Positions 7,015 to 34,802 of a stretch of DNA of 64,000 nt are shown piece by piece. A model generated the notes under the pieces. That model was not told the origin of the DNA, searched no databases, and saw only the letters and a program-made list of their open reading frames with translations. The stretch spans positions 4,226-68,225 of the forward strand of contig CATKFO010000051.1 in the NCBI GenBank assembly GCA_949747515.1, in the 5' to 3' direction. This stretch comes from an uncultured Eubacteriales bacterium (GTDB lineage: Bacteria > Bacillota > Clostridia > Oscillospirales > CAG-272). Numbering within the stretch: position 1 is the first letter of the stretch; every line of letters starts with the position of its first letter. Made by a program: the position numbers and the translations under genes.

Positions 7015-8406
7015 TTATCTGTTTTTAAAGTCTATCAAAACGGTTCCGTCGTCGTCTATAGTAAGGCTCATTTGCTTTATGTATTTATCGTAGAACTGCT
7101 GCCTCTCGGCGTGAGACATCTCTATTCGCGTATTTCTCAGAGCGGCGCCAAACATATCGTACGCGTTAAGGTGAACCGCATCGTCGATATAACGCTTCAT
7201 CTCTCCGAAAAGCGCGCTGCGCTTTATATCGTCGCTGTTTCCGGAATAAAAATCGTCCAAATAGCAATAGAAAATTCCGGAACTCTCAAGAGCGGACTTC
7301 ATATCCGGTCCGCATTTTTCGCGCTCTATCATCATAAGGAACTTAACGTCGGGCAGCGAAGTAATTAAGGCCCAGTAATCGGAGTCGCTGGACACTATAA
7401 CTATAGAATCAACGTTGTTCTGATAATGCTCCTTGCAAGCTCTCGCAGCCAGCTGCATATCGACCAAGGACTTGTCCTGCTTCAGCCGCTCGATCATGTT
7501 GCGCTCTACGGGAATATTAGTATACGCCTCAAGAATCTTCCATGCGGTAGCCGTGTGAACGTCGTCGAATAGTATGATCGACGAAATTTTACGCATAATT
7601 TCAAAGTCGAGATTACGAAGCGTAGCGCACAGTTTGTACGGATCCGAATTTTCGCAGTCCACGACCAATACCGTTTTCTCGCTTGCGTTGATAAAGTCGT
7701 AAATATTGTTTTTTATATAATCGCCGGCGTCTGAAACTCTGCTGTATTCTGTAAAATAATCGCCGTGCCAACGGTACAGCAGGGTCACGAACTTTTTATC
7801 ATTATATAGTATGTTGCCTTCGTCGGACGGAGTCCAATTTATATAAGTCTGATACGGATACGACATTCTGTGACCGTAATACAGCTCGGCCGCGGCCTTC
7901 GTTCCCTGCTCAGTCAATCCGTTAGGCATAATAAATAATTCTTTAACGTACTCCCAATTTATCCAAATGGGAAAAATATTTTTACAATTGTTGATACGAT
8001 CCGATATGAGTCTGTTTAATTCAATTATATGCTGATACAGCTTAGAGCTGGATTTTTTTATAAAATTTACTCCGTCCTCGGATAGCTGGTCTAGATTTTC
8101 CCGAGGTATATACTCCGGCATATTAGCGAGCCCTCTGAAATCCATACGCATCGCGTCGTTAATCTTTTTAAAGTTACGTTCAATAGACGTTCTCATAATA
8201 CAAAGATTTCGTATAATACGGGCGTTTTTGTTCGTTTCAAGCAGTTTGTACGTCTCCATTTTAGGAGCTTCATGCTCTTTTTCAAAAATTCGCTTCGGAA
8301 CTCCGATAAGATACGCAAGCTTTGACACTAATTCATACGTGCTGTTTTTATAGACGGTCCGTTCTTCTTCACGCCCGAAATCAACGTCTATAGCTTCGTT
8401 ATTCAA
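7015..8406 (-). CDS. NYN (PIN-like) domain protein with a large N-terminal domain
   Basis: VVDCENSD, KSLVD and IVSSDSDYWALI acidic PIN/LabA-type motifs in the C-terminal half; TTG start after AAGGGAG. Confidence 0.75.
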   Translation of the reverse strand: MNNEAIDVDFGREEERTVYKNSTYELVSKLAYLIGVPKRIFEKEHEAPKMETYKLLETNKNARIIRNLCIMRTSIERNFKKINDAMRMDFRGLANMPEYIPRENLDQLSEDGVNFIKKSSSKLYQHIIELNRLISDRINNCKNIFPIWINWEYVKELFIMPNGLTEQGTKAAAELYYGHRMSYPYQTYINWTPSDEGNILYNDKKFVTLLYRWHGDYFTEYSRVSDAGDYIKNNIYDFINASEKTVLVVDCENSDPYKLCATLRNLDFEIMRKISSIILFDDVHTATAWKILEAYTNIPVERNMIERLKQDKSLVDMQLAARACKEHYQNNVDSIVIVSSDSDYWALITSLPDVKFLMMIEREKCGPDMKSALESSGIFYCYLDDFYSGNSDDIKRSALFGEMKRYIDDAVHLNAYDMFGAALRNTRIEMSHAERQQFYDKYIKQMSLTIDDDGTVLIDFKNR

Positions 8407-15576: not shown

Positions 15577-18500
15577 TTATATCGCGGTTAAAGAATTATT
15601 TTTATCCGCAAGAGGAACGAGCGCGGCGTCGCCTAAAGGCAAAGAATAAATATACGTCTCGTCCGGAAATCTGCCGAACAGAAGACGACAGGCCTCCGCG
15701 TAATATGAAAGCTGTAGTTTATGTCTCGATATCAGTTTATCGGACGCCGCCTCGGGATGCGCCAGCTCGTATGCCGTAAGCGCGTCGGTTTTATAATCTA
15801 TAAGCGCGAGACGGCCGTCGCGCTCTTCCATCACGCAGTCGAAAACTCCCTGAACCGTTATTTTCTCTCCGCTTTCGCTCAGCTTTTTTCGCAAATCGTC
15901 GTCTTCGGTAAAATCGGAGGCGGGCAGTCTTACGTTGAAGCGATACTCGCGTATCAGCCTCGCGGCCGACAGCATCCGATCCATAAGAGCGCTCTCGGCG
16001 AAGCGTTCCACCTGACGCGCGTTTACTAAAGACGCCATTTTTTCCGTAATAAATCCGAGGGATACGAGCCTGTCTATTTCAGCGCGAGCTCCGTCTCTGC
16101 GAAGAGCCTCAAAATCTGCAAACTGTAGAACTACGTGAGTCGACGTTCCTCTTTCCGCAGGCGTAAATCCCGAGCTTCCCGTCATATACCTTGGACGAGG
16201 AGTCTCGCTTTCAGCGCCGGGCGTTTCTTTCCCTTTATTGTCGGCGTCGACCGCGTACTCGTCCACGGAGAAAATATCTCGCCCTTCGTCGGAGGAATCA
16301 AGAATAGCAGGATAAAGACGCGATACGGAAAGCTTGGACGGTATATTTGCAAGATAACCGTAAGGATATTCAAAGTCGAGATTATTCGTCAGTTTTTCCT
16401 CGTGGAGCTCGTATTCTTCTCTCTCTTCATCAAATTGAGAAGAATACGTTTTTCCTTCGGATATTTCAGCGGCTGGAATAACCGACAGCGCGCAGTCTCC
16501 TCCTCCGTCCGTCGTTATAGCTCCGAGAATATGATCGAGGAACGATACGGCGCGATCCTTCGTATACCTGTCGCAGTACGGCGCCGCCATACGCGCCGCT
16601 TCTAATTTTTCCTCCGCTTTTTCAAGGGTTCCAGTAACGACGAGCCTACGGCGGGCGCGGGTCATGGCGACGTAAAGAACGCGCATTTCTTCCTCAGTAC
16701 CTTCCTTGCTCATGAGGGACGCGACGGCGGTTCGCATAGGCGTTCCGCACCTGACGAGTCCGCCCGGATCCGGCAGTCTCATAGCGGCTCCTACCGATCT
16801 ATGAAGAAGGAGATCGGCGGTTTCGTCGCGAGAATTTCTCTTTTTTCCGGCGTCGCAGAGGAAGCAGACTTCAAATTCCAATCCCTTCGACTTATGTATG
16901 CTCATCACCGTTACCGCGTCGTTCTCGGCAGATTCCGAAACAACTCCGCTATTCCCAAGTTTTTCAGCGGCGAAACGAAGAAATCCGTAAAGGCCTCCGA
17001 AAACGCCGGATTCATATGAAGACGCCGTATCGCGTATGACGTTCAGATTAGTTTCTCCACAAGGCTTTTCCGTTACTTCGGGGGCGGAAAAAAGCTCCAG
17101 CTCAGAATACATATATTCGATAAATCGGTCCGCGCTCATTCCTCGTTCAGCCTCCCGCAAAGCCGTAACGCGGTTTACAGCGGTTTGACATTTTGTCCGC
17201 AGAGATTCTTCTTTCTCATGGACCGACGGGTCTTTTCCAAAATCCTCTTCGTTATTTTCCGCGTATTTTTTTAGCGAAAGCCAGAGAGGCGCGCCGTCCG
17301 TCGCGTCTGAATCCGAAAGCTTCACGCGCACCAAATCTTCAAGCGAAAAGCCGAACACAGAGGAACGCAGAGAACCGGCAAGCTCCACGTCGCGGAAAGG
17401 ATTGTCTACGGTCCTGAGAAGGTCGAAAACCAGTAAGACCTCGCTTTCCTCCATAAACTGCCGCTTACCCGCGCTTTTAACCGGAATTCCCCGCCGCGCG
17501 ACGGCGTCCGCATAAACCGCGCCTCTTGCTGAAATCCCCCTCAGCAATACGGCGATATTTCCGGGCCGAACTCCCTCCGACACCATGTCTGCTATTCGTC
17601 CCGCCACATATTCGGCTTCAGGTTCCTCAATAGTCGGTTCAGCCTGGCCTTCTGCTTTCTTTTTACCCCGTCCCGGCTTATCGATCAGGCATACCTCGAC
17701 GGGAGTCTCGTCGTCTTCTCCGCCGCCGAATACAAGGCAGTCTTCCTCTGAAAACGGCACGCTTCCGCCGGCGAACATAAACCTAGATACGGAGTTAACA
17801 AAATCTATAACCGGTCTTGAACACCGGAAATTTTCACTCATGAATATACTTCGCCCCGGAGGATAGCGGAGCTTGCTTTCAGCGTTTATTTCGCTCCCTT
17901 CAACCGCATACGTATCGCGGTCGTTTTCACGCGTTTTTTCGTTGTATCGCAGCGGCTCCCACGCCCGTCTGTATCCCGAAAAAACCTCCGGCTCCGCGCC
18001 TCTGAACCGGTATATGCTTTGCTTAACGTCTCCCACAAAAAAACTTTCGGCGTTAGCTGCGACGGCTCTGAATATCCTGTCCTGCACGCTGTTCGTATCC
18101 TGATATTCGTCTATAAACACAAATTTGAGCCGGCGACCTTCCTCTAAAGCGGCGGCGGAGGGACTGCCGTCGTCGTTTTCAAGAAGCTTTAGCGCGTTCA
18201 TCTCAAGATCCGAATAATCGAGAACGTTTCCATCCCTTTTGAGGGACGTAAAGCGATCGTCGAAAACACGGCATATTTCGGCGGCCGACCTCAGGGCTTT
18301 CGCAGTCTTAAGCATAGCGGGAACTATTTCCCCTTCGTCTGCGGAAAGCAGCCGCGCCGCGAGAGCCGCAAGTTCTGCTTTCATAGCCCCTCTCTCTCTT
18401 TGGAACATGACTGATTCAGGAGTTTTCTTAGACGCGGACAAAGGCTTTAATCCAGGCTGAACATACTTTATGGCTTCTCTTATCTCTCCGTACGAACCGG

Positions 18501-19308
18501 AACGGGTAATACGCTCAAGCCGAGCGAGATATTCCGCGTCCGCCGCAGCCGCGGGAAGATACTTTTCGGCTACAACCGGATCGGACGCTATTTCTTCCCT
18601 GAGAGATGAGATTACGCGCAGATAATGCGAAGCCGCTCCGTGAATCTCTCCTCTTATGATTTTGCCGAAAGAGCAGTCGAGAAAATCGTGTTCAGACGAC
18701 GCGTCAAGCTCGTCCGCGCACGACAGAAGCCATTCATGCCCCAAGCCGAGCGACCGGAGTCTGTCGTACAAATCGCGCATTGCGGCGTCAAGTCCGCCAG
18801 CGTCCCTCGTTTTGCCGAAAACGTCCGCGGTTTCAATTATGTCCGCGCAATTTTTTCCCTTGGGAAAACTAAGCTCTCCGCGGAAAAAGTCGTCGATTAC
18901 GTCCTCCATCGCTCTCTCTTTCATAACTTCGGCTTCCGCTTCATCCGCGACCGAAAAATCCGGAGTAAGAGATAATACGGCGAAGTTTTTACGCAGCAAA
19001 CGGTGGCAGTACGAATGAATTGTGCATATTTCCGCGGACGGAAGCGCGGCTATATGACGGGCCATGGACGAGTCTTCGAGGGCGGCTTCGGCAAGCTTCC
19101 GTCCTATTCTGGTCTTCATTTCTCCCGCGGCTGGTTTAGTATAGGTTACGATAAGCATTTCGCCAAGCGAAGCCTCGCCGTCTTTAAGGAGCGTTATGAT
19201 TCTTTCCGAAAGAGTAGCGGTCTTTCCGCTTCCAGCAGCGGCTGAAACGAGAATATTTCCTCTTGCGGATATAGCCGCCTTCTGCGCTTCAGTCCATTTT
19301 ACCGCCAT
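15577..19308 (-). CDS. addA: ATP-dependent helicase/nuclease subunit A
   Basis: VSAAAGSGKT, IDEYQDTN, VGDVKQSIYRFRGA, SIHKSKGLEF, LYVAMTRA; C-terminal RecB-type nuclease QGVFD...IDYKT...QLSYY. Confidence 0.93.
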   Translation of the reverse strand: MAVKWTEAQKAAISARGNILVSAAAGSGKTATLSERIITLLKDGEASLGEMLIVTYTKPAAGEMKTRIGRKLAEAALEDSSMARHIAALPSAEICTIHSYCHRLLRKNFAVLSLTPDFSVADEAEAEVMKERAMEDVIDDFFRGELSFPKGKNCADIIETADVFGKTRDAGGLDAAMRDLYDRLRSLGLGHEWLLSCADELDASSEHDFLDCSFGKIIRGEIHGAASHYLRVISSLREEIASDPVVAEKYLPAAAADAEYLARLERITRSGSYGEIREAIKYVQPGLKPLSASKKTPESVMFQRERGAMKAELAALAARLLSADEGEIVPAMLKTAKALRSAAEICRVFDDRFTSLKRDGNVLDYSDLEMNALKLLENDDGSPSAAALEEGRRLKFVFIDEYQDTNSVQDRIFRAVAANAESFFVGDVKQSIYRFRGAEPEVFSGYRRAWEPLRYNEKTRENDRDTYAVEGSEINAESKLRYPPGRSIFMSENFRCSRPVIDFVNSVSRFMFAGGSVPFSEEDCLVFGGGEDDETPVEVCLIDKPGRGKKKAEGQAEPTIEEPEAEYVAGRIADMVSEGVRPGNIAVLLRGISARGAVYADAVARRGIPVKSAGKRQFMEESEVLLVFDLLRTVDNPFRDVELAGSLRSSVFGFSLEDLVRVKLSDSDATDGAPLWLSLKKYAENNEEDFGKDPSVHEKEESLRTKCQTAVNRVTALREAERGMSADRFIEYMYSELELFSAPEVTEKPCGETNLNVIRDTASSYESGVFGGLYGFLRFAAEKLGNSGVVSESAENDAVTVMSIHKSKGLEFEVCFLCDAGKKRNSRDETADLLLHRSVGAAMRLPDPGGLVRCGTPMRTAVASLMSKEGTEEEMRVLYVAMTRARRRLVVTGTLEKAEEKLEAARMAAPYCDRYTKDRAVSFLDHILGAITTDGGGDCALSVIPAAEISEGKTYSSQFDEEREEYELHEEKLTNNLDFEYPYGYLANIPSKLSVSRLYPAILDSSDEGRDIFSVDEYAVDADNKGKETPGAESETPRPRYMTGSSGFTPAERGTSTHVVLQFADFEALRRDGARAEIDRLVSLGFITEKMASLVNARQVERFAESALMDRMLSAARLIREYRFNVRLPASDFTEDDDLRKKLSESGEKITVQGVFDCVMEERDGRLALIDYKTDALTAYELAHPEAASDKLISRHKLQLSYYAEACRLLFGRFPDETYIYSLPLGDAALVPLADKNNSLTAI

Positions 19309-19386
19309 TATCGTATACCGTCCTTCCAAGGTTTAAACGTAATCTTTATTATAGTAAATCCGCACGAAGTTTTGCTCTTTAAAATT

Positions 19387-20322
19387 TCACTTAACAAAAT
19401 TCAGTATTTCTTCGACTGCGTCTTCAAAACAGGAGTCATTCAGTATTTCATGCCGGCCGCCCTCAAATAAGCGCATGCGCGCGTCGACTCCGGCTTCTAT
19501 AAGCCTATCGTACGCGCGAATAACCCCTCTGCCGTAGTCTCCAACGGGATCGTCGCTTCCCGAAAGTAGAAGCACGGGGATCTTTATGGAAGAAAACCAT
19601 TCTTTACGGTTGCATCTTCTCTGAAGCATCAAAAGATCGCTCATTGCGCTCGCCGTAAACTGAAACGTGCATAACGGATCCGAGGCGTAATCCTTTTTCA
19701 CCGACGCGTCGCGTGTCAGCCACTCGTATTTACTTCCGTCGCCGTCGGATTTGAAGCGTCTGTTATAATTCCCGAACGCCAATTCGTCCACGATTGGAGA
19801 GATATGCCTCTCTCCGTAAAATAATTTTACGAGTTTAATAAAGGCAAGTCCAGGACCCGACAATAAATTCGGGCCTCCGGTCCCCATGACTATCAGCTTT
19901 TCAGGAGACTCGTCCGTATTAGCCGTTTTTTCGGCCGAACAGCGGACGACAAAAGATCCCATGCTGTGACCAAGCAGATAATACGGCAAATCCTTACCGT
20001 ATTCGTTTCTCACAGAATCTGCAAACACGGTTACGTCCTCTACAAGACGCAGCCAACCGTTCTTATGAGCGAAAAATCCAAGCTCATTCTCATCGGCGGC
20101 GGTGTATCCGTGTCCGAGATGATCGTATCCGAAGCAAATAAATCCTTCTTCGGCTATACGACGCATAAAAGTATCGTACCGGCGTATGTGCTCCGTCATG
20201 CCGTGCACCGTTTGAAATATTCCCCTTATGGAAACGCTGGGATCGGGCGAATAAACTCTTCCGTGAAGAACGTGCGCGCCGTCGGAAGAAGGAACGAGCT
20301 TTTCCTTTACGGTTATGTTCAT
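19387..20322 (-). CDS. alpha/beta hydrolase (lysophospholipase-like)
   Basis: HGMTEH, DHLGHG, GHSMGS, GRHEILN. Confidence 0.9.
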   Translation of the reverse strand: MNITVKEKLVPSSDGAHVLHGRVYSPDPSVSIRGIFQTVHGMTEHIRRYDTFMRRIAEEGFICFGYDHLGHGYTAADENELGFFAHKNGWLRLVEDVTVFADSVRNEYGKDLPYYLLGHSMGSFVVRCSAEKTANTDESPEKLIVMGTGGPNLLSGPGLAFIKLVKLFYGERHISPIVDELAFGNYNRRFKSDGDGSKYEWLTRDASVKKDYASDPLCTFQFTASAMSDLLMLQRRCNRKEWFSSIKIPVLLLSGSDDPVGDYGRGVIRAYDRLIEAGVDARMRLFEGGRHEILNDSCFEDAVEEILNFVK

Positions 20323-20395
20323 CTGAAAAATTCCTTTCGTAGCCTCCGAATAGTCGTAATTGTTTTAATCTCAACTTCATCTCCTCGTCGGATAT

Positions 20396-22708
20396 TTAAG
20401 AGGAGCCTTTATTGTTGTACCGACGCAGCCTAAGCTCCGCTTCGTCCGTTCTTAGGCGGTCCTCGACATATGCGCGTCTCAGCAGGGCCGGCGGTATCAT
20501 TGGATCGTATTTATTAAAAGGAGGCGCCTCGTGCTCGCCTACTAATGAATCGGGATCGATACCGTTTTCCGCCGTCTCGGCCAGATATTTTAAAAGTTCG
20601 TCTCCGGAGCCGCGTTCGAGCCGGAATTTCATATAATAGCACCCTTCGAATTCCATACCGGATAGACCGAATTTCCCTCCGTTTTTTCCTATGAAGCGGC
20701 GCATGGTGCGGAACGAACGTGTCCCCAGCCACGGAAAGTATACCCAGGTCGAGCCGCCGATACATAAAATATCCCGTTCTGTCACGCCTGTGTTTCTCGC
20801 TACGGCGCGAGCCGCGCGAAGCCGTTTAAGCGCGCCTTCTTTGAGATATGGATATTCCGTCTCCTCGCATAGAACGCCTTTCATTCGTTCCAGTATTCGC
20901 GTGTGTACCTCGCCGAAATCCCCCGGCCACGCTATCTCCATTTTCCCCTTAACCGGACGGACGTATACGAGTTTTCTTGGAACGTCTACCTCTTCAACCT
21001 CCCATACTCGTCCAGCTAGCGCAAACCTGTCTCCCGCGGGAGGGGCGGAGGCGATGGTTCCTATCTCGTCGGAGCCTGAACGAACGGTAAAGTCTTCCGA
21101 ATCTTTAAAAACCGCAAAAAATTTAAATGAATTTATAAGACGCTCTCCGCGCAGACCGATCAGAAGCTCTCCTTCGTCCGTCATTTCTATATAATCCTGC
21201 TCAATCATAGATAGCAGCAAACTTTTGTACTCGTCCTTTTCTATATATCTGAAAGGATGCAAGGTTAAAGTCCTTTCAGCCAATCGGCGAGGCGTCATAG
21301 CTCCGGACGAAGCGAGGGCCGACAACGTTTGCTGAAACAGCAGACTGAACGGACGGGTTACTCTAAACGGAGGCTCTATAAATCTTTCTTCAACGTATAA
21401 TTGTATTATAGCTATCGCCCTCAGCAATTCCCACGGGATCAGCTCGGGGAGAGGCGCGTTAGGGAGCGGCTCCTCTTCCCGGAACACCATCATCATTTCA
21501 GGCAAGCCGCCTCGTCTGCCGGAACGCCCGAGTCTCTGTAAAAAAGACGATACAGAGTGCGGCGCTCCAACGTGAACCACGCGCTCCAGTTTTCCAATAT
21601 CCACGCCCAGTTCCAGAGTCACCGTAGCGCAGGTTACGACGCGTTCCTCGTCGTTTTTCATTTTAAGCTCCGCTTCTTCTCGCAGAGACGCGGAGAGATT
21701 TCCGTGATGGATAAGAAAAATATCGTCTTCACTCCGATATTCCGCGATCTGACGAAGCGTGGCGGTTACGTATTCCGTTTCTTCTCTTGAATTTGAGAAT
21801 ACCAACGCCTTTTTATCTTTTACGCAATCGTATACGTATTCATATCCGGGATCAAGAGAAAAGGCGGCCTCTCCGGGTTGGTTCTCGCCCTCGCCTCCCG
21901 CGCGCTCCGCGTTATATTGGGCGTTAGGTTCGCTCGTATCGGTAGTCAGATCTACAAATTTTCTCTCGTCGTCGCTTTCGCCATGACTGTGAATAAAAAA
22001 GTGCTCCATACCGAGTCTCGCGCGGAAAGGCTGTTTTTTCTCCGCCGCCTTTGGATTAGGAACGGAAACGTTCCTATCCCTACCGGAAGACAGCCATTCG
22101 GCCGCTGAGGAGACGTCTCCTATTGTGGCGGACAATCCGATCCTCCGCGGGTCTGTTCCGGCGGCGCGAGAAAGACGAGCGAGCTGGCATATAATTTGGT
22201 TTCCCCTATCCGTGCCCGTTAAAGTATGAATTTCATCTATTATCACGTATCGCAGATCGCAAAAAAACCTCGGGATGTCTCCAGGCCTGCGTATGAGCAT
22301 TGCCTCGAGAGATTCCGGAGTAATTTGAAGCAGGCCGGAAGGCTCTTTCAGCGCCTTCGATTTATGAGACGCCGCAACGTCTCCGTGCCAATGGTACACG
22401 GGGATACCGGCCGTATCGGTCAGCTCCGTTATTCTGCCGAACTGATCGTTTATAAGCGATTTAAGCGGGGCGACGTACAGGGCTCCGAATGAGACGGGCG
22501 GGTTAGAATAGAGATCGGAAAGAATCGGGAAAAGAGCCGCTTCGGTTTTTCCAGACGCGGTGGACGACGATATGAGAAGGTCGTCGTCCGTTTCAAATAT
22601 AATCCTCGCGGCTTCGAGCTGCGTTTCGTGCAGACGCTCCCACCCGCGCGAATATATAAACTCCCTTATAAAAGGCGAGTAAGCGTAAAAAATTTCTGAG
22701 TCCGTCAA
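20396..22708 (-). CDS. Lhr-like DEAD/DEAH box helicase
   Basis: TASGKTEAA, IDEIH, SAT, HHG, LELGVDIG, QRLGRSGRR. Confidence 0.9.
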   Translation of the reverse strand: MTDSEIFYAYSPFIREFIYSRGWERLHETQLEAARIIFETDDDLLISSSTASGKTEAALFPILSDLYSNPPVSFGALYVAPLKSLINDQFGRITELTDTAGIPVYHWHGDVAASHKSKALKEPSGLLQITPESLEAMLIRRPGDIPRFFCDLRYVIIDEIHTLTGTDRGNQIICQLARLSRAAGTDPRRIGLSATIGDVSSAAEWLSSGRDRNVSVPNPKAAEKKQPFRARLGMEHFFIHSHGESDDERKFVDLTTDTSEPNAQYNAERAGGEGENQPGEAAFSLDPGYEYVYDCVKDKKALVFSNSREETEYVTATLRQIAEYRSEDDIFLIHHGNLSASLREEAELKMKNDEERVVTCATVTLELGVDIGKLERVVHVGAPHSVSSFLQRLGRSGRRGGLPEMMMVFREEEPLPNAPLPELIPWELLRAIAIIQLYVEERFIEPPFRVTRPFSLLFQQTLSALASSGAMTPRRLAERTLTLHPFRYIEKDEYKSLLLSMIEQDYIEMTDEGELLIGLRGERLINSFKFFAVFKDSEDFTVRSGSDEIGTIASAPPAGDRFALAGRVWEVEEVDVPRKLVYVRPVKGKMEIAWPGDFGEVHTRILERMKGVLCEETEYPYLKEGALKRLRAARAVARNTGVTERDILCIGGSTWVYFPWLGTRSFRTMRRFIGKNGGKFGLSGMEFEGCYYMKFRLERGSGDELLKYLAETAENGIDPDSLVGEHEAPPFNKYDPMIPPALLRRAYVEDRLRTDEAELRLRRYNNKGSS

Positions 22709-22808
22709 GTTAACACCCCCGGCATTTTTCCTTAATACTATACTGGTTTCAAAGCTTTAGCGGCCCCGCGCCAATGTTTTCGCGCTTTTAAGGAGCTTTT
22801 ATTTTGAA

Positions 22809-23780
22809 TTACTGCATTTCTTTTTTCAGCGAACGGCTGAACAGCGAATTCAGCGCGTCTGCGGCGGGCATTCCTTCATAAAGAATTTTGTAAACCGCTT
22901 CGCAAATAGGCATGTCGACGTTCTTCTTTCCGCATATTCTGTGAACGGCGTCCGCGGTATAATATCCCTCCGCAAGAGCCGTGTATTCCTCCCCTCGAAT
23001 AAACGCCTCGCCAAACCTCCTGTTGTGGCTGTGTCGGGAAAATACCGTCGCTTCATAGTCTCCCAGATGGCAGAGTCCGTACGCGGAGTTTCCGGCGCCG
23101 CCCATCGCTTCTATCAGGCGCGAAACTTCTCTCGTACCGCGAGACATAAGCGGTCCTTTGAGAGTAGACATTCCGATTCCGTCAAGCATTCCGGCGGCGA
23201 TGCCGATCACGTTTTTGACGGCGGCCCCAAGCTCGTTTCCGATCAGATCTTCTCCATAATAAAATCTGATAAGATCGGAGGAAAAAAGATTCACCAGTTT
23301 TTCTTTCAGCTCCGCGTCTTTTGAATCGATCACCATGCAGCTCGGCGCGCCGGCGTAAAACTCCTGCACATGGCCGGGACCTATCCACACGGCTACTTTA
23401 TTTGACGGGTCGACGCATTCTTCAGTCACCTCGGACAAACGCATACCCGTGTCGATTTCAATTCCTTTCATACATAAAATGAAAGCTTTATTTTTTATTT
23501 CAAGAGGTTTAAGCTCTCCGAGAAGCGATCTGAGCCCCTGAGAATTTACCGATATGAGGACGGCGTCGCCGGCGTTTACGCATTGGATATCGGTAGAAAG
23601 AGAAACGGACTCGGGCAATGAAAGCAGATCGTTTTTCCTCTCTTTTATAAATCGAATCATCGACGGATCGTTCGCTCTTCCATATAACGTAACGTCATGA
23701 CCGATACGATCGAGATACCATGTGATCAAAGAGCCCCATCTTCCGCAGCCGATTACGGTTATTTTCATTCGTTTCTCCAT
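22809..23780 (-). CDS. gpsA: NAD(P)H-dependent glycerol-3-phosphate dehydrogenase
   Basis: GCGRWG Rossmann motif, KGIE, AVKNVIGIAAG, GLCHLGD, SHNRRFG, AEG; start may be 23780 or 23768. Confidence 0.9.
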   Translation of the reverse strand: MEKRMKITVIGCGRWGSLITWYLDRIGHDVTLYGRANDPSMIRFIKERKNDLLSLPESVSLSTDIQCVNAGDAVLISVNSQGLRSLLGELKPLEIKNKAFILCMKGIEIDTGMRLSEVTEECVDPSNKVAVWIGPGHVQEFYAGAPSCMVIDSKDAELKEKLVNLFSSDLIRFYYGEDLIGNELGAAVKNVIGIAAGMLDGIGMSTLKGPLMSRGTREVSRLIEAMGGAGNSAYGLCHLGDYEATVFSRHSHNRRFGEAFIRGEEYTALAEGYYTADAVHRICGKKNVDMPICEAVYKILYEGMPAADALNSLFSRSLKKEMQ

Positions 23781-24007
23781 TCCGCCGCGCATAGCGGCAC
23801 AAGCTGTATTTGATATTGAATTCGCGCCGGAACATCCGCGCTTTCAGGATTTGCGATTTCGCCGCGGTATACGCGGAAAACCCGCAAAAAACAATTGCTA
23901 CGCGAATGTTACGGCGATCGTACGTTTTTTATCTATATGATACACCATAGCGATAATTTTTTCAAGTGTTATCGGGCAATGCAGTATATAATATACAAAA
24001 TAAACAC

Positions 24008-29804: not shown

Positions 29805-30546
<742 letters not shown>

Positions 30547-30562
30547 TGCTTGACTCATTATT

Positions 30563-30591
30563 AATATAGCATAAGCAAACGTAAAAATCAA
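30563..30591 (-). promoter_or_regulatory. sigma-A promoter inside the putative invertible segment, facing away from the surface-protein genes
   Basis: Minus strand TTGATT (30591-30586), 17 bp, TATATT (30568-30563) with extended -10 TG; AT-rich region upstream. Confidence 0.65.
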
Positions 30592-30645
30592 GAGAAAATA
30601 AAATATTTTATAATTTTTTATTGAAAATCGTTGTGAAATCACCCG

Positions 30646-30671
30646 CTATCAAAAAGCGTACTTTTTGACAG
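30646..30671. repeat. hix-like recombination site, right (inverted relative to left)
   Basis: CTATCAAAAAGC-GT-ACTTTTTGACAG; core GT is the reverse complement of the left core AC. Confidence 0.75.
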
Positions 30672-30804
30672 TAACTATTTTTGGAAGTGATAAGGGGGGA
30701 GGGGCATGATAGCAAGACAGAGGGATCATCCGCATTGCCCGCAATATTAATACTTATGCTTCAAAAATAGCGCTTGCGCTGTAAATTTTTAGGAGGAAAA
30801 TACC

Positions 30805-32994
30805 ATGAAGAGAAAGTTCTCAAGGGCAATGGTGTTGTTTTTATCAGCCGCTATGCTGGCAACACAGCTCATTGCGCCGATCTCTGCCGTCGGGGACGGC
30901 GGCGAGAGTAATGAAAATCACGTATGTGTAAAGGGTGAATTTGTAAGACATATTGATCCTACATGTACGGACTGGGGTTATGACGTCAGAAAATGCGAAA
31001 GCTGTGGCGAAGAGTTTGCTCCCAGAGATTCATATGTTAATCCGCTTGGCCATGACATGGCAAAACAAAACGCTAAGGCCCCTACCTGTACGGAAGAAGG
31101 CTGGAACGAGCATATGGCATGTACGAGATGCGATTATACGGAAGGAAAGGAAATAAAATCGGCGGCTGGTCACAAGTATATAGAGATCGGCAGAGTTGAA
31201 TCCGGTTGTTTAACCGGCAACGGTCATATCGATTACAAATGCTCCGTATGCGGACATGAAAAACAAGAAGAGCTCAAGCCCGCCGGACATGATTATTCCG
31301 CTCCCAAAACCGTTAAAGAAGCTACGTGCACTAATGCCAAAGTAGTAGAGTATACCTGTAAAAAATGCGGTTATAAAGTTACGGAGACTGTCGGCGAGCC
31401 TTTGGCGCATAAACCGGGCGACGCGGTAAAAGTAGGAAAAACCGTGGCCGCAACATGCGAAAAAGCCGCATACGACGTTTATGTTACAAAGTGTAAGGAT
31501 TGCGGAACTGAGTTAAAGACTGAGAACAGGGACGTAGCCGGCAGCAAGCCTTTAGGGCATAAAGAAGTCGTTTGCCCCGAGGTCAAACCGACTTGTTTAA
31601 CTCCCGGTCTTACAGGCGGTTCAAAATGCGAGAGATGCGATAAGGTATTTGAAGAGCAGAAAAAAGTATTTGACGCTCCGTACGATCCTTTGGCAGAGTC
31701 GCACAAGACTCCCGTAATCACAATAACTAAACAAGACGCGACCTGCACGGAAAAAGGACATACATACCAAATGGAGTGCGAAACTTGCGGCGAAGTATTG
31801 ATCCATTCTGAAGAGATCCCCGCATTGGGTCACGTTGAGGGCGAAGTAAAAGTCGTTGCTCCGAGCTGCGGAGCGGACGGTCATACGGATCATTATTGCT
31901 CGCGCTGCGAGAAGCTCTATCTGACTGATAATATAATTAAAGCTCCGGCGAAGGCCCACGAATTTGTCGCTACCGGAACAGTCGCTCCCACCTGCGAGAA
32001 CGACGGATATACGTTTAAGGAATGCAAGTGGTGCCACGCCCAAGAGGACAAGGAGATTCTCCCCGCTCTCGGACATAAGTCTGTAACTGACAAGGCGATT
32101 GCTCCTACCTGCACCAAGGACGGTCTTACCGAGGGCGCGCACTGCTCGGTTTGCAACAAGGTTCTTATAAAACAGGAGGTCGTAAAGGCCACGGGTCATC
32201 CCGAGGACAAAGTCACGATTCTTCCCGCAGTAAAGCCTACCGTAGATAAAACCGGACTTACCGAAGGCAGGCATTGCAACGTATGCGACACTACCTTTGT
32301 TAAGCAAGAAGTTATCGGAAAGACAGAGCAGCTCGCATTTACTTATGAGGCTAAAGGCGTTAACGGAAGCAAAGAAGCCGTAAATTCCGGATATATAACG
32401 TTTAACGTCTATATGAATGTAAAGACCGACGTCGCAAGACTTTGGGGCTCTGATATTGACATTCAATATAATAAGTCTTTAGAGCTTATCGACGTTACAT
32501 TTGGCGAAAATCTCTTCAATCAGAAAATGCATACGGAATTTGCCGTCGCAAACAAAGACGTTAAAGACGTTCCTTATCGCAGCGTCAAGATATCTCAGGA
32601 TATGGGACTCAACGGCGCCAAAGAGTTTAAAAAGGGCGAATACTTATTTGCAACTCTTACGTTTAAGGTCGCAAAAGATCTTACCGGCACTACCGCTTTG
32701 ACAATTAATCTCAATTCTTGCGATGTAGCGCATGACTTCGATACCCTTAAGAATTATATTGAAGTCGACTTTGGAGCCGGAGCTCAGATCGACGTCCGTA
32801 GACTCGGAGATGCAAACGGCAATGGCAAAATTGATTCTACCGACGCTATGCTGCTTTCACAGTGGCTTGCAACCGCAGACCTTGACGATTATAATCCAAT
32901 CTACGATATGGATAAGAACGGCGTGGTCGACGGCGACGATTTGGCGCTTATTCGCGGCGCGGTAGTCAGAAACGATGCTTATTTGGATATTTAA
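30805..32994 (+). CDS. secreted protein: ~11 Cys/His repeats, cohesin-like domain, C-terminal dockerin
   Basis: Signal peptide; H..(P/A)TC..G..CxxC repeats; ITFNVYM..GSDIDIQYNKSLELIDV..LFATLTFKV (cohesin-like); GDANGNGKIDSTD and DMDKNGVVDGDD (duplicated dockerin Ca loops). Confidence 0.8.
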   Translation: MKRKFSRAMVLFLSAAMLATQLIAPISAVGDGGESNENHVCVKGEFVRHIDPTCTDWGYDVRKCESCGEEFAPRDSYVNPLGHDMAKQNAKAPTCTEEGWNEHMACTRCDYTEGKEIKSAAGHKYIEIGRVESGCLTGNGHIDYKCSVCGHEKQEELKPAGHDYSAPKTVKEATCTNAKVVEYTCKKCGYKVTETVGEPLAHKPGDAVKVGKTVAATCEKAAYDVYVTKCKDCGTELKTENRDVAGSKPLGHKEVVCPEVKPTCLTPGLTGGSKCERCDKVFEEQKKVFDAPYDPLAESHKTPVITITKQDATCTEKGHTYQMECETCGEVLIHSEEIPALGHVEGEVKVVAPSCGADGHTDHYCSRCEKLYLTDNIIKAPAKAHEFVATGTVAPTCENDGYTFKECKWCHAQEDKEILPALGHKSVTDKAIAPTCTKDGLTEGAHCSVCNKVLIKQEVVKATGHPEDKVTILPAVKPTVDKTGLTEGRHCNVCDTTFVKQEVIGKTEQLAFTYEAKGVNGSKEAVNSGYITFNVYMNVKTDVARLWGSDIDIQYNKSLELIDVTFGENLFNQKMHTEFAVANKDVKDVPYRSVKISQDMGLNGAKEFKKGEYLFATLTFKVAKDLTGTTALTINLNSCDVAHDFDTLKNYIEVDFGAGAQIDVRRLGDANGNGKIDSTDAMLLSQWLATADLDDYNPIYDMDKNGVVDGDDLALIRGAVVRNDAYLDI

Positions 32995-33010
32995 AACGGA
33001 GGTATAAGAG

Positions 33011-34747
33011 ATGCAGCTTAAAAGAATCTCAGCGATCCTTTTGGTTGTTGCTCTGATCTTCTCAGTTACGTCGATATTCGTCGGAGCTGAAGCGGTTGAA
33101 GCCGTTGAATCCGTTGAAGTGGGAGTGGAGGCTGAAACCGCCGCTCCCGTTTCTTCATCACCGAAAATTTTCAATGGAAGCGATGAAGTTTCAGTAAAGA
33201 TCAGAGTAAACCAAAATACAGGAGTTACTTTTTTAAGGTTTGTAATTTATTTTAATTCTGAAGCTTTGGAATATGTCGATTACAAATCTGATAATTTATT
33301 CAATTCCCAGACTGAGTCTATTCAAGTCAGAAACGGATATCTTATTTACTTTTTGAATCTTGATAGCGACGTTTCCGAGGCGAAGGGCGATTTGATGTCT
33401 ATAAACTTCAAAGCAAAACCCGGCTATTGCGGAGATGTTGAAATCTATACCGAACTCGCAAATAAGAGCGATGCAAACTGCGCGAAATATCACTCGTCGG
33501 CGAAAAACACTTATGTCCCTTTCACCGCCGGCAAGGATTCCTTTGAGGTTCATTCTGTCGACGTGTCCAAAGGCGTTGTAACGGCTCCTACGTGTACGGA
33601 GAACGGATTTACAACATATGAGTGTTCAAACTGCAAGGAAAAGCTAATCGGAAATACAGTCGATAAGCTCGGTCATGTTAACGCCAAACCAGTAGAAGAA
33701 AATCGTATTAATTCTACTTGCGCTGAAAAGGGCTCGTATGACAGCGTTGTCTACTGTGAAAGATGCAATACGGAGCTTTCAAGAAATAGCGTTTCTATTG
33801 ACGCATTGGGTCACACAGAAGTAGTAGACGCGGCTAAGGCTCCTACCTGCACGGAAACCGGACTTACCGAAGGCAAACACTGCTCTGTTTGTAACGAAGT
33901 CACTGTAAAGCAGGAAATTGTAGAAGCTACAGGTCACACAGAAGTAATAGACGCGGCTAAAGCTCCTACCTGCACGGAAACCGGACTTACTGAAGGCAAG
34001 CGCTGTTCTGTTTGCAACGAAGTGATCAAAGCGCAGGAAACGGTTCCCGCTCTCGGACACGCCCTAGGCGAGTGGGTCGTGGTAGCGCCTACATGCAAGG
34101 CTGCCGGAAGCCGTTATCGCACATGCGCGGTATGCAATGAGAAATGCGACGTTAAAGAGCTTTCTAAGCTTGATGATTCGTCTAAACGGTATTCCGACGT
34201 TTTCAGCGACGCCTGGTATAAGAACGCCGTAGACTATGTATCGACAAAGGGTCTTATGAACGGTATGAGCGCGGATACATTTATGCCGGATACCACAATG
34301 ACTAGGGCTATGCTTGTAACGGTCCTTTACAGAATGGAAGGAACGCCGAAAGTCGAAGGCGGAAATCCGTTTGACGACGTAAAGGGAGGCGAATGGTATA
34401 GCGGCGCCATCACATGGGCTGCCGCAAACGGCATTGTCAACGGAACAAGCGCTAACTCGTTTGCGCCGATGGATGAGATCACGCGCGAGCAGATGGCTGC
34501 GATCCTATACAGATATGCCGGAGAATATAAGAAGTATGACGTATCGGCGAGAGCAGATTTAACGTCGTTCCCGGATTACAAGGAAGTAAGCGACTATGCT
34601 AAGGACGCTTTTGCATGGGCAAGTTCCGAAGGACTCGTCAACGGAAGCGACGTCGGAGGGAAAGTTATACTTGACGCCAGAGGCAACGCAACGCGCGCTC
34701 AGGTTGCGACGATCCTTATGAGATTTGACCTGAAGTTTTTTAAGTAA
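33011..34747 (+). CDS. cell-surface protein: cohesin-like domain, 5 Cys/His repeats, 3 SLH domains
   Basis: Signal peptide; VSVKIRVNQNTGVTFLRFVIYFNSEALEYV..GDLMSINFKAK (cohesin-like); YSDV..WY..TRAM, FDDV..WY..TREQ and FPD..TRAQ SLH motifs. Confidence 0.85.
   Translation: MQLKRISAILLVVALIFSVTSIFVGAEAVEAVESVEVGVEAETAAPVSSSPKIFNGSDEVSVKIRVNQNTGVTFLRFVIYFNSEALEYVDYKSDNLFNSQTESIQVRNGYLIYFLNLDSDVSEAKGDLMSINFKAKPGYCGDVEIYTELANKSDANCAKYHSSAKNTYVPFTAGKDSFEVHSVDVSKGVVTAPTCTENGFTTYECSNCKEKLIGNTVDKLGHVNAKPVEENRINSTCAEKGSYDSVVYCERCNTELSRNSVSIDALGHTEVVDAAKAPTCTETGLTEGKHCSVCNEVTVKQEIVEATGHTEVIDAAKAPTCTETGLTEGKRCSVCNEVIKAQETVPALGHALGEWVVVAPTCKAAGSRYRTCAVCNEKCDVKELSKLDDSSKRYSDVFSDAWYKNAVDYVSTKGLMNGMSADTFMPDTTMTRAMLVTVLYRMEGTPKVEGGNPFDDVKGGEWYSGAITWAAANGIVNGTSANSFAPMDEITREQMAAILYRYAGEYKKYDVSARADLTSFPDYKEVSDYAKDAFAWASSEGLVNGSDVGGKVILDARGNATRAQVATILMRFDLKFFK
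33809..34054 (+). repeat. intragenic tandem duplication, 123-bp period (41-aa Cys/His repeat)
   Basis: GGTCACACAGAAGTAGTAGACGCGGCTAAGGCTCCTACCTGCACGGAAACCGGACTTAC at 33809 and a near-identical copy at 33932. Confidence 0.85.
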
Positions 34748-34752
34748 ATATA

Positions 34753-34802
34753 ATTATGGGCCGTATCAGTTTAGCGCTTTGATACGGCCCATAATAATTT
34801 TT
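34753..34802 (+). terminator. terminator of the surface-protein operon
   Basis: ATTATGGGCCGTATCA...TGATACGGCCCATAAT plus T run. Confidence 0.8.

Follow-up and report, generated by a model that had tools for sequence, protein, structure and literature searches.

Cohesin-dockerin pairs have mostly been studied as the glue of plant-fibre or starch enzymes. The anchoring scaffoldins SdbA, Orf2p and OlpB of Clostridium thermocellum join one or more cohesins to SLH domains, and in scaffoldins that hold both modules the cohesin usually takes the dockerins of other proteins. Invertible promoters worked by small serine invertases are known from Salmonella (Hin/hix) and Bacteroides fragilis (Mpi); the phase-variable wall protein CwpV of Clostridioides difficile is switched by a tyrosine recombinase. 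In the amylosome of Ruminococcus bromii, Amy4/Sca1 carries a cohesin and a dockerin in one protein, and the part of the report consulted describes self-recognition and autoaggregation (PMC4611034). The Cellulosilyticum lentocellum pair ClcC/ClcD has a single cohesin and a single dockerin in the annotation (loci Clole_2599/Clole_2598), and a heterodimer was shown, according to the section available (PMC13487519). Periscope proteins are described, in the excerpt used here, as carrying arrays of highly identical repeats in tandem, which gain and lose units within populations (PMC9704523). Here we describe a locus in a 64,000-nucleotide stretch of contig CATKFO010000051.1 from an uncultured Eubacteriales bacterium (hereafter the window), in which a serine recombinase gene precedes two genes, A and B, that combine cohesins, a dockerin, Cys/His repeats and a wall anchor. 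We consider it rather likely that this recombinase-A-B cassette puts an enzyme-free two-tier stalk on the surface of a mouse-gut bacterium of the Oscillospirales type, docking and promoter inversion included. The DNA of the window was present in mouse-gut metagenomes, in 20 runs from 8 studies, one of them perhaps its origin.

Genes A and B and all their modules lie on the plus strand. Gene A (30805..32994), delimited from its open reading frame (ORF) and domain scans, encodes a secreted protein of 729 amino acids. It contains 11 Cys/His repeats of about 40 residues each (30925..32304; from CxxC spacing and a repeat hidden Markov model, HMM), a divergent cohesin named CohA (about residues 503-662; 32311..32790; by homology via relatives and profiles) and a C-terminal dockerin named DocA (32791..32991; Pfam and PDB dockerin chains), with almost no linker between the last two. 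Gene B (33011..34747; ORF and Pfam) encodes a secreted protein of 578 amino acids with an N-terminal cohesin, CohB (about residues 44-186; 33140..33568; Pfam), five Cys/His repeats (33572..34165; recognized as in A) and three SLH domains as a wall anchor (34187..34744; Pfam). The two genes are separated by 16 nt, and GGAGG precedes the ATG of B. Signal peptides were called by eye in both proteins from a basic N terminus and a hydrophobic stretch (ISA/VG in A, VGA/EA in B). Just after the signal peptide of B, a 9-nt tandem repeat of 3.6 copies (33088-33119) codes for EAVEAVESVEV. A likely operon terminator, the hairpin GGGCCGTATCA...TGATACGGCCC followed by a T-rich tail, was recognized by eye at 34758..34802 on the plus strand; the motif scan presumably missed it because its loop of 11 nt, counted by eye, exceeds the 8-nt limit of the scan.

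DocA matched Pfam Dockerin_1 (PF00404) at residues 667-717 with 29.6 bits (cut-off 22.9). Its two calcium-loop motifs are DANGNGKIDSTD and DMDKNGVVDGDD, its two helices are dissimilar, and its profile matched dockerin chains in the PDB. CohB matched Pfam Cohesin (PF00963) at residues 58-136 with 30.0 bits (cut-off 24.1), and the SLH domains of B were found as three stretches with 86.5 bits. Pfam and NCBIfam scans found no catalytic family in A or B at E<=1, and no recognizable head domain in A. The module content described here is, judging from these scans, a real feature. It agrees with the first-pass annotation, which had read a signal peptide, about 11 repeats, a cohesin and a dockerin in A, a signal peptide, a cohesin, five repeats and three SLH domains in B, and a catalytic domain in neither; Pfam and the repeat HMM found the same modules, with both signal peptides again called by eye.

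The cohesins had likewise been called by eye. That of B stood on its own Pfam score, and that of A was upheld through its relatives, although its own score was below the threshold. The Pfam scan of the whole protein A reported no cohesin, and a phmmer search of CohA against PDB sequences returned nothing relevant. Relatives of CohA comprised 57 representatives at E<=1e-3 among 1.84 billion proteins. In six of the 19 A-like relatives scanned, the homologous region just ahead of the dockerin scored above the Pfam cohesin cut-off, and a further two relatives matched Pfam Cohesin at E<=1e-3. In an alignment of 20 CohA members, seven matched Cohesin at E<=0.01 and no member matched another family; the profile of this alignment had a single PDB match at E<=10, the cohesin 4ums_A (E 0.0067). 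The reference for hhalign comparisons was a small set of aligned canonical cohesins from congeners. The CohA family scored 87.4% against it (E 3.6e-6), the CohB family 92.5% and the CohC family (see below) 86.3%, and an alignment of the Cys/His repeats, used as the control, scored 0.04%. On these comparisons we regard CohA as homologous to cohesins, though divergent. Of the three cohesin families found in the cassettes it is the most divergent, and as far as the alignments tell, these families are related only via canonical cohesins. CohA was kept in every locus, with invariant motifs across the 20 aligned members, and always stands directly before the dockerin (43 of 51 profile matches carry PF00404).

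Protein A has 35 Cys and 24 His residues and 11 CxxC motifs at a spacing of about 40 residues, and B has five CxxC motifs; an HMM built from the repeat units found 11 copies in A and 5 in B. The unit has the form H...C...CxxC, and the eleventh unit of A is without the first Cys. The repeat profile matched no consistent Pfam family. Among solved structures it had a single significant match, to the C-terminal region of the Thomasclavelia ramosa IgA protease (PDB 9qa6, E 1.1e-6), in three stretches. In the portion of the report drawn on here, CTD2 and CTD4 of this protease are an uncharacterized fold in which Cys and His residues are predicted structural zinc sites tying small beta-sheets, and both are proposed as 'periscope' spacers that project a functional domain from the cell (PMC12415215). 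We take CTD2/CTD4 to be of the same repeat type as the units of A and B, going by the profile match. Another protein of the same genome (contig C76:2430-5825, locus L072) contains a signal peptide, two BspA-type leucine-rich repeat blocks, three such Cys/His repeats and three SLH domains; repeats placed between a leucine-rich head and an SLH anchor suggest a spacer role. The number of repeats varies among relatives (3-18 in A-like and 4-10 in B-like proteins), which also suggests spacers. Tandem Repeats Finder detected a single array of repeat units at the DNA level, 123 nt in 1.9 copies with 88% matches, formed by units 3 and 4 of B. The near-identical DNA repeats of a canonical periscope protein were not found beyond these two units, and we rejected that assignment.

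The assembly of this genome measures 2.34 Mb and is 94% complete. Within it, the Pfam dockerin model matched A and one other protein, the Pfam cohesin model matched B only, and the cassette cohesin HMMs found one CohA, one CohB and no CohC. The double calcium-loop pattern occurred only in A and in that one other dockerin gene product, a 2278-aa M60-like peptidase encoded on the minus strand of contig C20 (C20:193-7044, locus L073). The peptidase contains Peptidase_M60, fn3, F5/8-type-C and Flg_new domains and three SLH domains, and has an N-terminal dockerin match of borderline strength at residues 140-185 (21.7 bits when the protein was scanned, cut-off 22.9; 27 bits in a six-frame search). 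Neither dockerin-like module of the genome sits on a glycoside hydrolase. With only two cohesins and two dockerin-like modules, the latter on A and the M60-like peptidase, the genome therefore holds no cellulosome or amylosome, and we ruled these out; the pair had been called non-cellulosomal from the start. SLH domains had 101 matches in the genome, and a CsaB-like pyruvyl transferase (PS_pyruv_trans) had one, with 88.6 bits. SLH anchoring is the standard surface display of this organism.

Relatives were then compared, with loci, genomes and contigs numbered L, G and C, respectively, and one genome taken per species. The scan gave 14 loci, 13 of which had an A-like protein; the fourteenth matched the dockerin alone. 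The 13 loci came from gut and rumen metagenome-assembled genomes labelled Faecousia, Acutalibacteraceae, Ruminococcaceae, Ruminococcus or Clostridia. A B-like gene started 15-19 nt after the A-like gene in all 13, and the same order was found in G023, G168 and G112, giving 16 of 16 other loci examined. When 300 other genomes of the order were sampled, strong full-length CohB matches occurred only in G168 and G112, and CohA was adjacent in both; three genomes with the next-best, partial CohB matches were also searched for CohA and none had it (five genomes searched in all). The distribution of CohA was patchy: it was present in none of 19 congeners, in one of five other genera of the family, and weakly in one of 16 other families sampled.

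B-like proteins have their N-terminal cohesin and repeats in common, and their C-terminal ends vary among SLH domains, choline-binding repeats, a membrane helix and a dockerin. Where B ended in a wall anchor (the window, L007, L009 and L008, the last judged from its repeat tail across a masked stretch), no related third gene followed. Where B ended in a conserved symmetric dockerin (L005, L010-L014, L015 and L016), a third gene followed that codes for a signal peptide, a Pfam-positive cohesin (CohC), repeats and a C-terminal membrane helix. In L006 and L017, B carried other dockerin types and no such third gene was present. DocA is a separate conserved dockerin type with two dissimilar helices, and it occurs in all loci compared. 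On the simplest reading of this covariation, a dockerin would fit the cohesin encoded by the gene that follows its own. By the same logic, DocA is predicted to plug into CohB, and A and B probably join through a cohesin-dockerin joint. The earlier proposal that B anchors A thus gains indirect support, from the A-B order in the 16 other loci and from the covariation of anchor and third gene. Because the three-gene cassettes have three cohesin types and two dockerin types, one cohesin is spare, and if A is attached at all the spare one is CohA.

Beyond the cassette, the extra dockerin proteins differed between G000 (the number given to one of these genomes), G043, G044 and G023, with one each in G043 and G044. 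In cassette genomes with few dockerins they differed in kind, and included a repeat protein, a glucosaminidase with a neighbouring cohesin gene, and others. At L025 (G044:C35), a glucosaminidase-like protein with a dockerin adjoins a cohesin-membrane protein. At L028 (G023:C104), an unrelated protein combines a cohesin-like domain and a dockerin with a Cys/His repeat of another type. The loci retrieved next to dockerin matches contained no homologue of the M60-like peptidase; they came from five cassette-bearing genomes and from five congeners, the latter being part of the eight congeners that had a dockerin match.

Upstream of A lies a gene for a small serine recombinase of the invertase/resolvase type, with a catalytic domain and a helix-turn-helix (29911..30527, plus strand; Pfam). 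The ORF list starts this gene at a TTG (29862..30527); the ATG at 29911 is preceded by the ribosome site AAAGGAGG. The protein matched Pfam Resolvase with 93.7 bits, and HTH_7; its NCBIfam matches to invertase/recombinase models were partial and all far under the cut-offs (37.9 vs 272 bits for the Mpi model). Two inverted 20-bp near-palindromes, identified by conservation and a consensus search, are candidate recombination sites. The left one (30524..30543, central AC) overlaps the recombinase stop codon, and the right one (30649..30668, central GT) is inverted relative to it. The 125 bp between the site centres (30534..30658) form a candidate invertible segment, delimited by alignment of relatives. 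Inside the segment, a promoter-like TTGACA-16-TAATAT (30540..30567, plus strand; a consensus match) points at A, which would be the 'on' orientation as assembled. The consensus site had two matches in the 64-kb window vs 0 expected, and no further copies on the contig.

Recombinases that are 67-74% identical stand upstream of A-like genes in seven of the 12 loci with upstream sequence (L009-L015), and the same holds for G168 and two metagenome contigs. All eight aligned recombinase-bearing loci have two inverted 20-bp near-palindromes with opposite central dinucleotides (GT/AC). Equivalent promoter-like elements lie by the recombinase-proximal site in L011, L015 and G168 (L076); in L009, the element lies at the distal site on the other strand. 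Aligned with L010-L014, the L009 segment scored 56-57 when reverse-complemented vs 23-27.5 as is. Its promoter-bearing end was identical at 28 of 32 bases once flipped (counted by eye), and the flanks kept their order. The segment has, on the evidence of these alignments, been inverted at least once in evolution. Compared across species, the segments of L009 and L075 have the opposite orientation to those of L010-L014 and L074. Metagenomes scanned with the 3' end of the recombinase gave no match; the site-plus-promoter motif as query recovered two contigs, both oriented as already known for their own types.

Several further features of this region and its kind were recorded. A paralogous recombinase, 80% identical to that of the window, is encoded elsewhere in the genome (C69:6302-8899, locus L071), with an exact inverted 20-bp site pair at C69:7088-7107 and 7227-7246 and a downstream 434-aa gene whose product begins with a zinc-ribbon domain. 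A terminator-like hairpin lies just before the ribosome-binding site of A (30767-30782) and is unconserved in the aligned loci. The poly-G tract GGGGGGAGGGG in the leader (30694-30704) was considered as a slippage switch and dropped, being short and unconserved in the aligned loci. An Rfam scan of the 5' leader of A found nothing. A full-text literature search for cohesin-dockerin genes under an invertible promoter or subject to phase variation gave one general review only.

These data can be put together in the following model. B would be exported and held by its three SLH domains on a pyruvylated wall polymer, and its five repeats, presumably zinc-stabilized, would keep the N-terminal cohesin away from the wall. 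A would be exported as well, and its C-terminal dockerin would plug, with calcium, into CohB. The 11-repeat rod of A would then project outward, with CohA placed at the joint and free for one further dockerin. The ligand of CohA could be another A, the M60-like peptidase, or nothing. The serine recombinase would flip the 125-bp promoter segment and so turn the operon on (as assembled) or off in each cell.

A number of results weigh against this model. CohA taken alone matched only Pfam Cohesin, with E 0.0062 and 17.2 bits, under the cut-off of 24.1. Its similarity to CohB (BLASTP E 0.044; hhalign with the CohB family E 0.11) and to the CohC family (hhalign E 0.087) was non-significant. Gene adjacency alone would be weak evidence that A and B bind, and the zinc sites and rod shape of the repeats are carried over from published work on a different protein. 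The promoters were called by consensus match only. In L005-L008 and L017, the A-B pair occurs with neither recombinase nor sites, and the switch is therefore not an obligatory part of the A-B system. Each sequence type seen more than once (L010-L014 with L074; L009 with L075) showed a single orientation. Inversion in the window's own species was checked by comparing contigs of four mouse-gut runs with positions 30100-31300. No flipped segment was found in these contigs, an assembly form that drops rare variants: two spanning contigs (X3 record 9 and X5 record 13) kept the window orientation, and no joint was reported. Contigs from X2 and X6 stop within the segment or at the left site (30593/30630; 30541-30556) and are uninformative on orientation. 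The phase variation that had been proposed is thus backed by the recombinase, the inverted sites and a relative with a flipped segment, and the inversion itself was unseen in the two spanning contigs of the species.

The rival explanations differ chiefly in what they make of CohA. It is possible, though rather unlikely, that DocA binds the CohA of the next A as well as CohB, which would give the head-to-tail, sortase-free fibre that the first-pass annotation had raised, here standing on B with the repeat rods pointing sideways. Amy4 of R. bromii is a precedent, as its dockerin recognizes its own cohesin and Amy4 can autoaggregate, according to the portion of that work used here (PMC4611034). 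A holds both modules almost without a linker; CohA was found in every locus, yet no conserved dockerin protein was found outside the cassette. The spare cohesin of the three-gene cassettes, with their three cohesin and two dockerin types, fits a fibre, and the dissimilar helices of DocA make two binding faces conceivable. Against it, outside partners are at hand in some cassette genomes, which are rich in other dockerins (13 and 49 matches), and the cohesin of characterized two-module scaffoldins usually binds the dockerins of other proteins. A more sweeping version, which we think unlikely to hold, makes the cassette a self-contained, horizontally shared kit for a new Gram-positive fibre. There, A would polymerize head-to-tail without sortase into an invertase-switched, zinc-ribbon 'bottle-brush' on an SLH, choline-binding or membrane base, one face of DocA serving CohB and the other the next CohA. 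A passive role of A is unlikely too: CohA would have no dockerin partner, being either a relic or a beta-sandwich with a structural or ligand-binding function, and A would be a terminal stalk or shield on B. Such a role would suit the most divergent of the three cohesin families, which is under the Pfam cut-off, and a protein with no recognizable head domain. A relic should have been lost in some lineages, whereas CohA retains its invariant motifs in the 20 aligned members and always keeps its place directly before a dockerin.

Recruitment of another protein is an alternative that we find quite doubtful. Here DocA would bind CohB, and CohA would take up a different dockerin protein, in this genome the M60-like peptidase of contig C20. 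A one-to-one pairing would use all four of the two cohesins and two double calcium-loop modules; the peptidase has its match at residues 140-185, and G043 and G044 each encode one dockerin protein outside the cassette. However, the dockerin of the peptidase is borderline by its protein-scan score, the peptidase has its own SLH anchor, and the extra dockerin protein of G044 adjoins its own cohesin-membrane gene. The lack of an M60 homologue around the dockerin loci fetched from other cassette genomes and the five congeners also suggests that the partnership would be unconserved. Finally, A and B might neither interact nor be switched. They would then be independent, co-transcribed surface proteins, the recombinase would serve a mobile element as its resolvase, and the palindromes would function as res sites, operators or terminators. 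Each site is indeed palindromic, some of them are listed as terminator-like hairpins in the motif scan, inversion within a species was not observed, and the cassette is patchy, with no CohA in the 19 congeners. This explanation is very unlikely in our estimate. The covariation of the B anchor with the third gene is hard to explain without docking; the sites are inverted with opposite central dinucleotides in all aligned loci, and the L009 segment is flipped between flanks of unchanged order. There is also no other mobile-element gene between the melibiase-like gene and the tRNA-Ser gene that flank the cassette, and the GC content of the cassette is ordinary (0.456 vs 0.444 +/- 0.037 for the genome). 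The two-tier stalk, with DocA in CohB, remains the reading that we prefer.

The surroundings of the cassette were also inspected. The cassette had no match in plasmid records. In congeners, the tRNA-Ser gene and mreC are on different contigs and DNA identity is only 64-72%; therefore, an empty insertion site could not be reconstructed. Four congener contigs (L053, L057, L058 and L059) end within a few hundred bases of tRNA-Ser(GGA), the flank of the cassette here, which hints at a variable or repeated region beside the tRNA. Elsewhere in the window, positions 16001-24000 have a higher GC content (0.50-0.52 vs about 0.42-0.45 nearby) and contain genes for an AddA-type helicase-nuclease and a DEAD-box helicase.

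Several families of gut Clostridia have conserved the cassette, whose glue bears long Cys/His repeat stalks and no enzyme. Relatives exchange the wall anchor like a cartridge, and in one lineage the whole operon lies behind a probable invertase switch. If the docking is real, the cellulosome principle would be used here for variable surface architecture, such as spacing, shielding, adhesion or co-aggregation in the gut. With two cohesins and two dockerin-like modules, the genome makes a very small and tractable case in which to ask how a hierarchy is wired by dockerin specificity. The uncurated zinc 'periscope' repeat, until now discussed only for an IgA protease, also appears here in a second biological setting. 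The A-B pair is probably a modest new variation on the assembly principle of cellulosomes.

Like the anchoring scaffoldins of C. thermocellum, B is a secreted protein that would offer a cohesin to the dockerin of another protein and ends in a C-terminal SLH triplet on the wall. Unlike them, B has one divergent N-terminal cohesin on a Cys/His repeat stalk, its host genome has two dockerin-like modules only and no dockerin-bearing glycoside hydrolase, and in its relatives the place of the SLH anchor can be taken by choline-binding repeats, by a membrane helix, or by a dockerin accompanied by a third gene. The switch region resembles the Hin, Mpi and CwpV types in having a recombinase gene by short inverted sites around a promoter-like element upstream of a predicted surface operon. 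It differs from CwpV, where the recombinase is of the tyrosine type, in using a serine recombinase, and from Mpi in the low score of this recombinase with the NCBIfam model. In its working, A may resemble an adaptor scaffoldin or Amy4. Like A, Amy4 is a gut Firmicutes protein outside cellulose degradation with both a cohesin and a dockerin; it is a GH13 amylase of a system that organizes enzymes (PMC4611034), whereas A has no catalytic domain and any self-binding of A is hypothetical. The A-B pair can be likened to the minimal pair ClcC/ClcD in adjoining genes. In the section of that study available, ClcC/ClcD enhances cellulase activity, whereas A-B has no enzyme, contains a second cohesin, in A, and lies downstream of an invertase module (PMC13487519). 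The Cys/His repeats are of the same kind as those of CTD2/CTD4 in the T. ramosa IgA protease (profile E 1.1e-6), where, in the portion consulted, a few units occur in a sortase-anchored protease, whereas the 11 and 5 units of A and B make up most of two non-enzymatic proteins (PMC12415215). With periscope proteins, as outlined in the excerpt used, A and B would share rod-like arrays of repeats at the surface that vary in length among relatives (3-18 units), but only two units of B are alike in DNA (88%; PMC9704523). What is new relative to these known systems is the combination of no enzyme, zinc-type repeat stalks, a cartridge-like exchange of anchors and a probable invertase switch.

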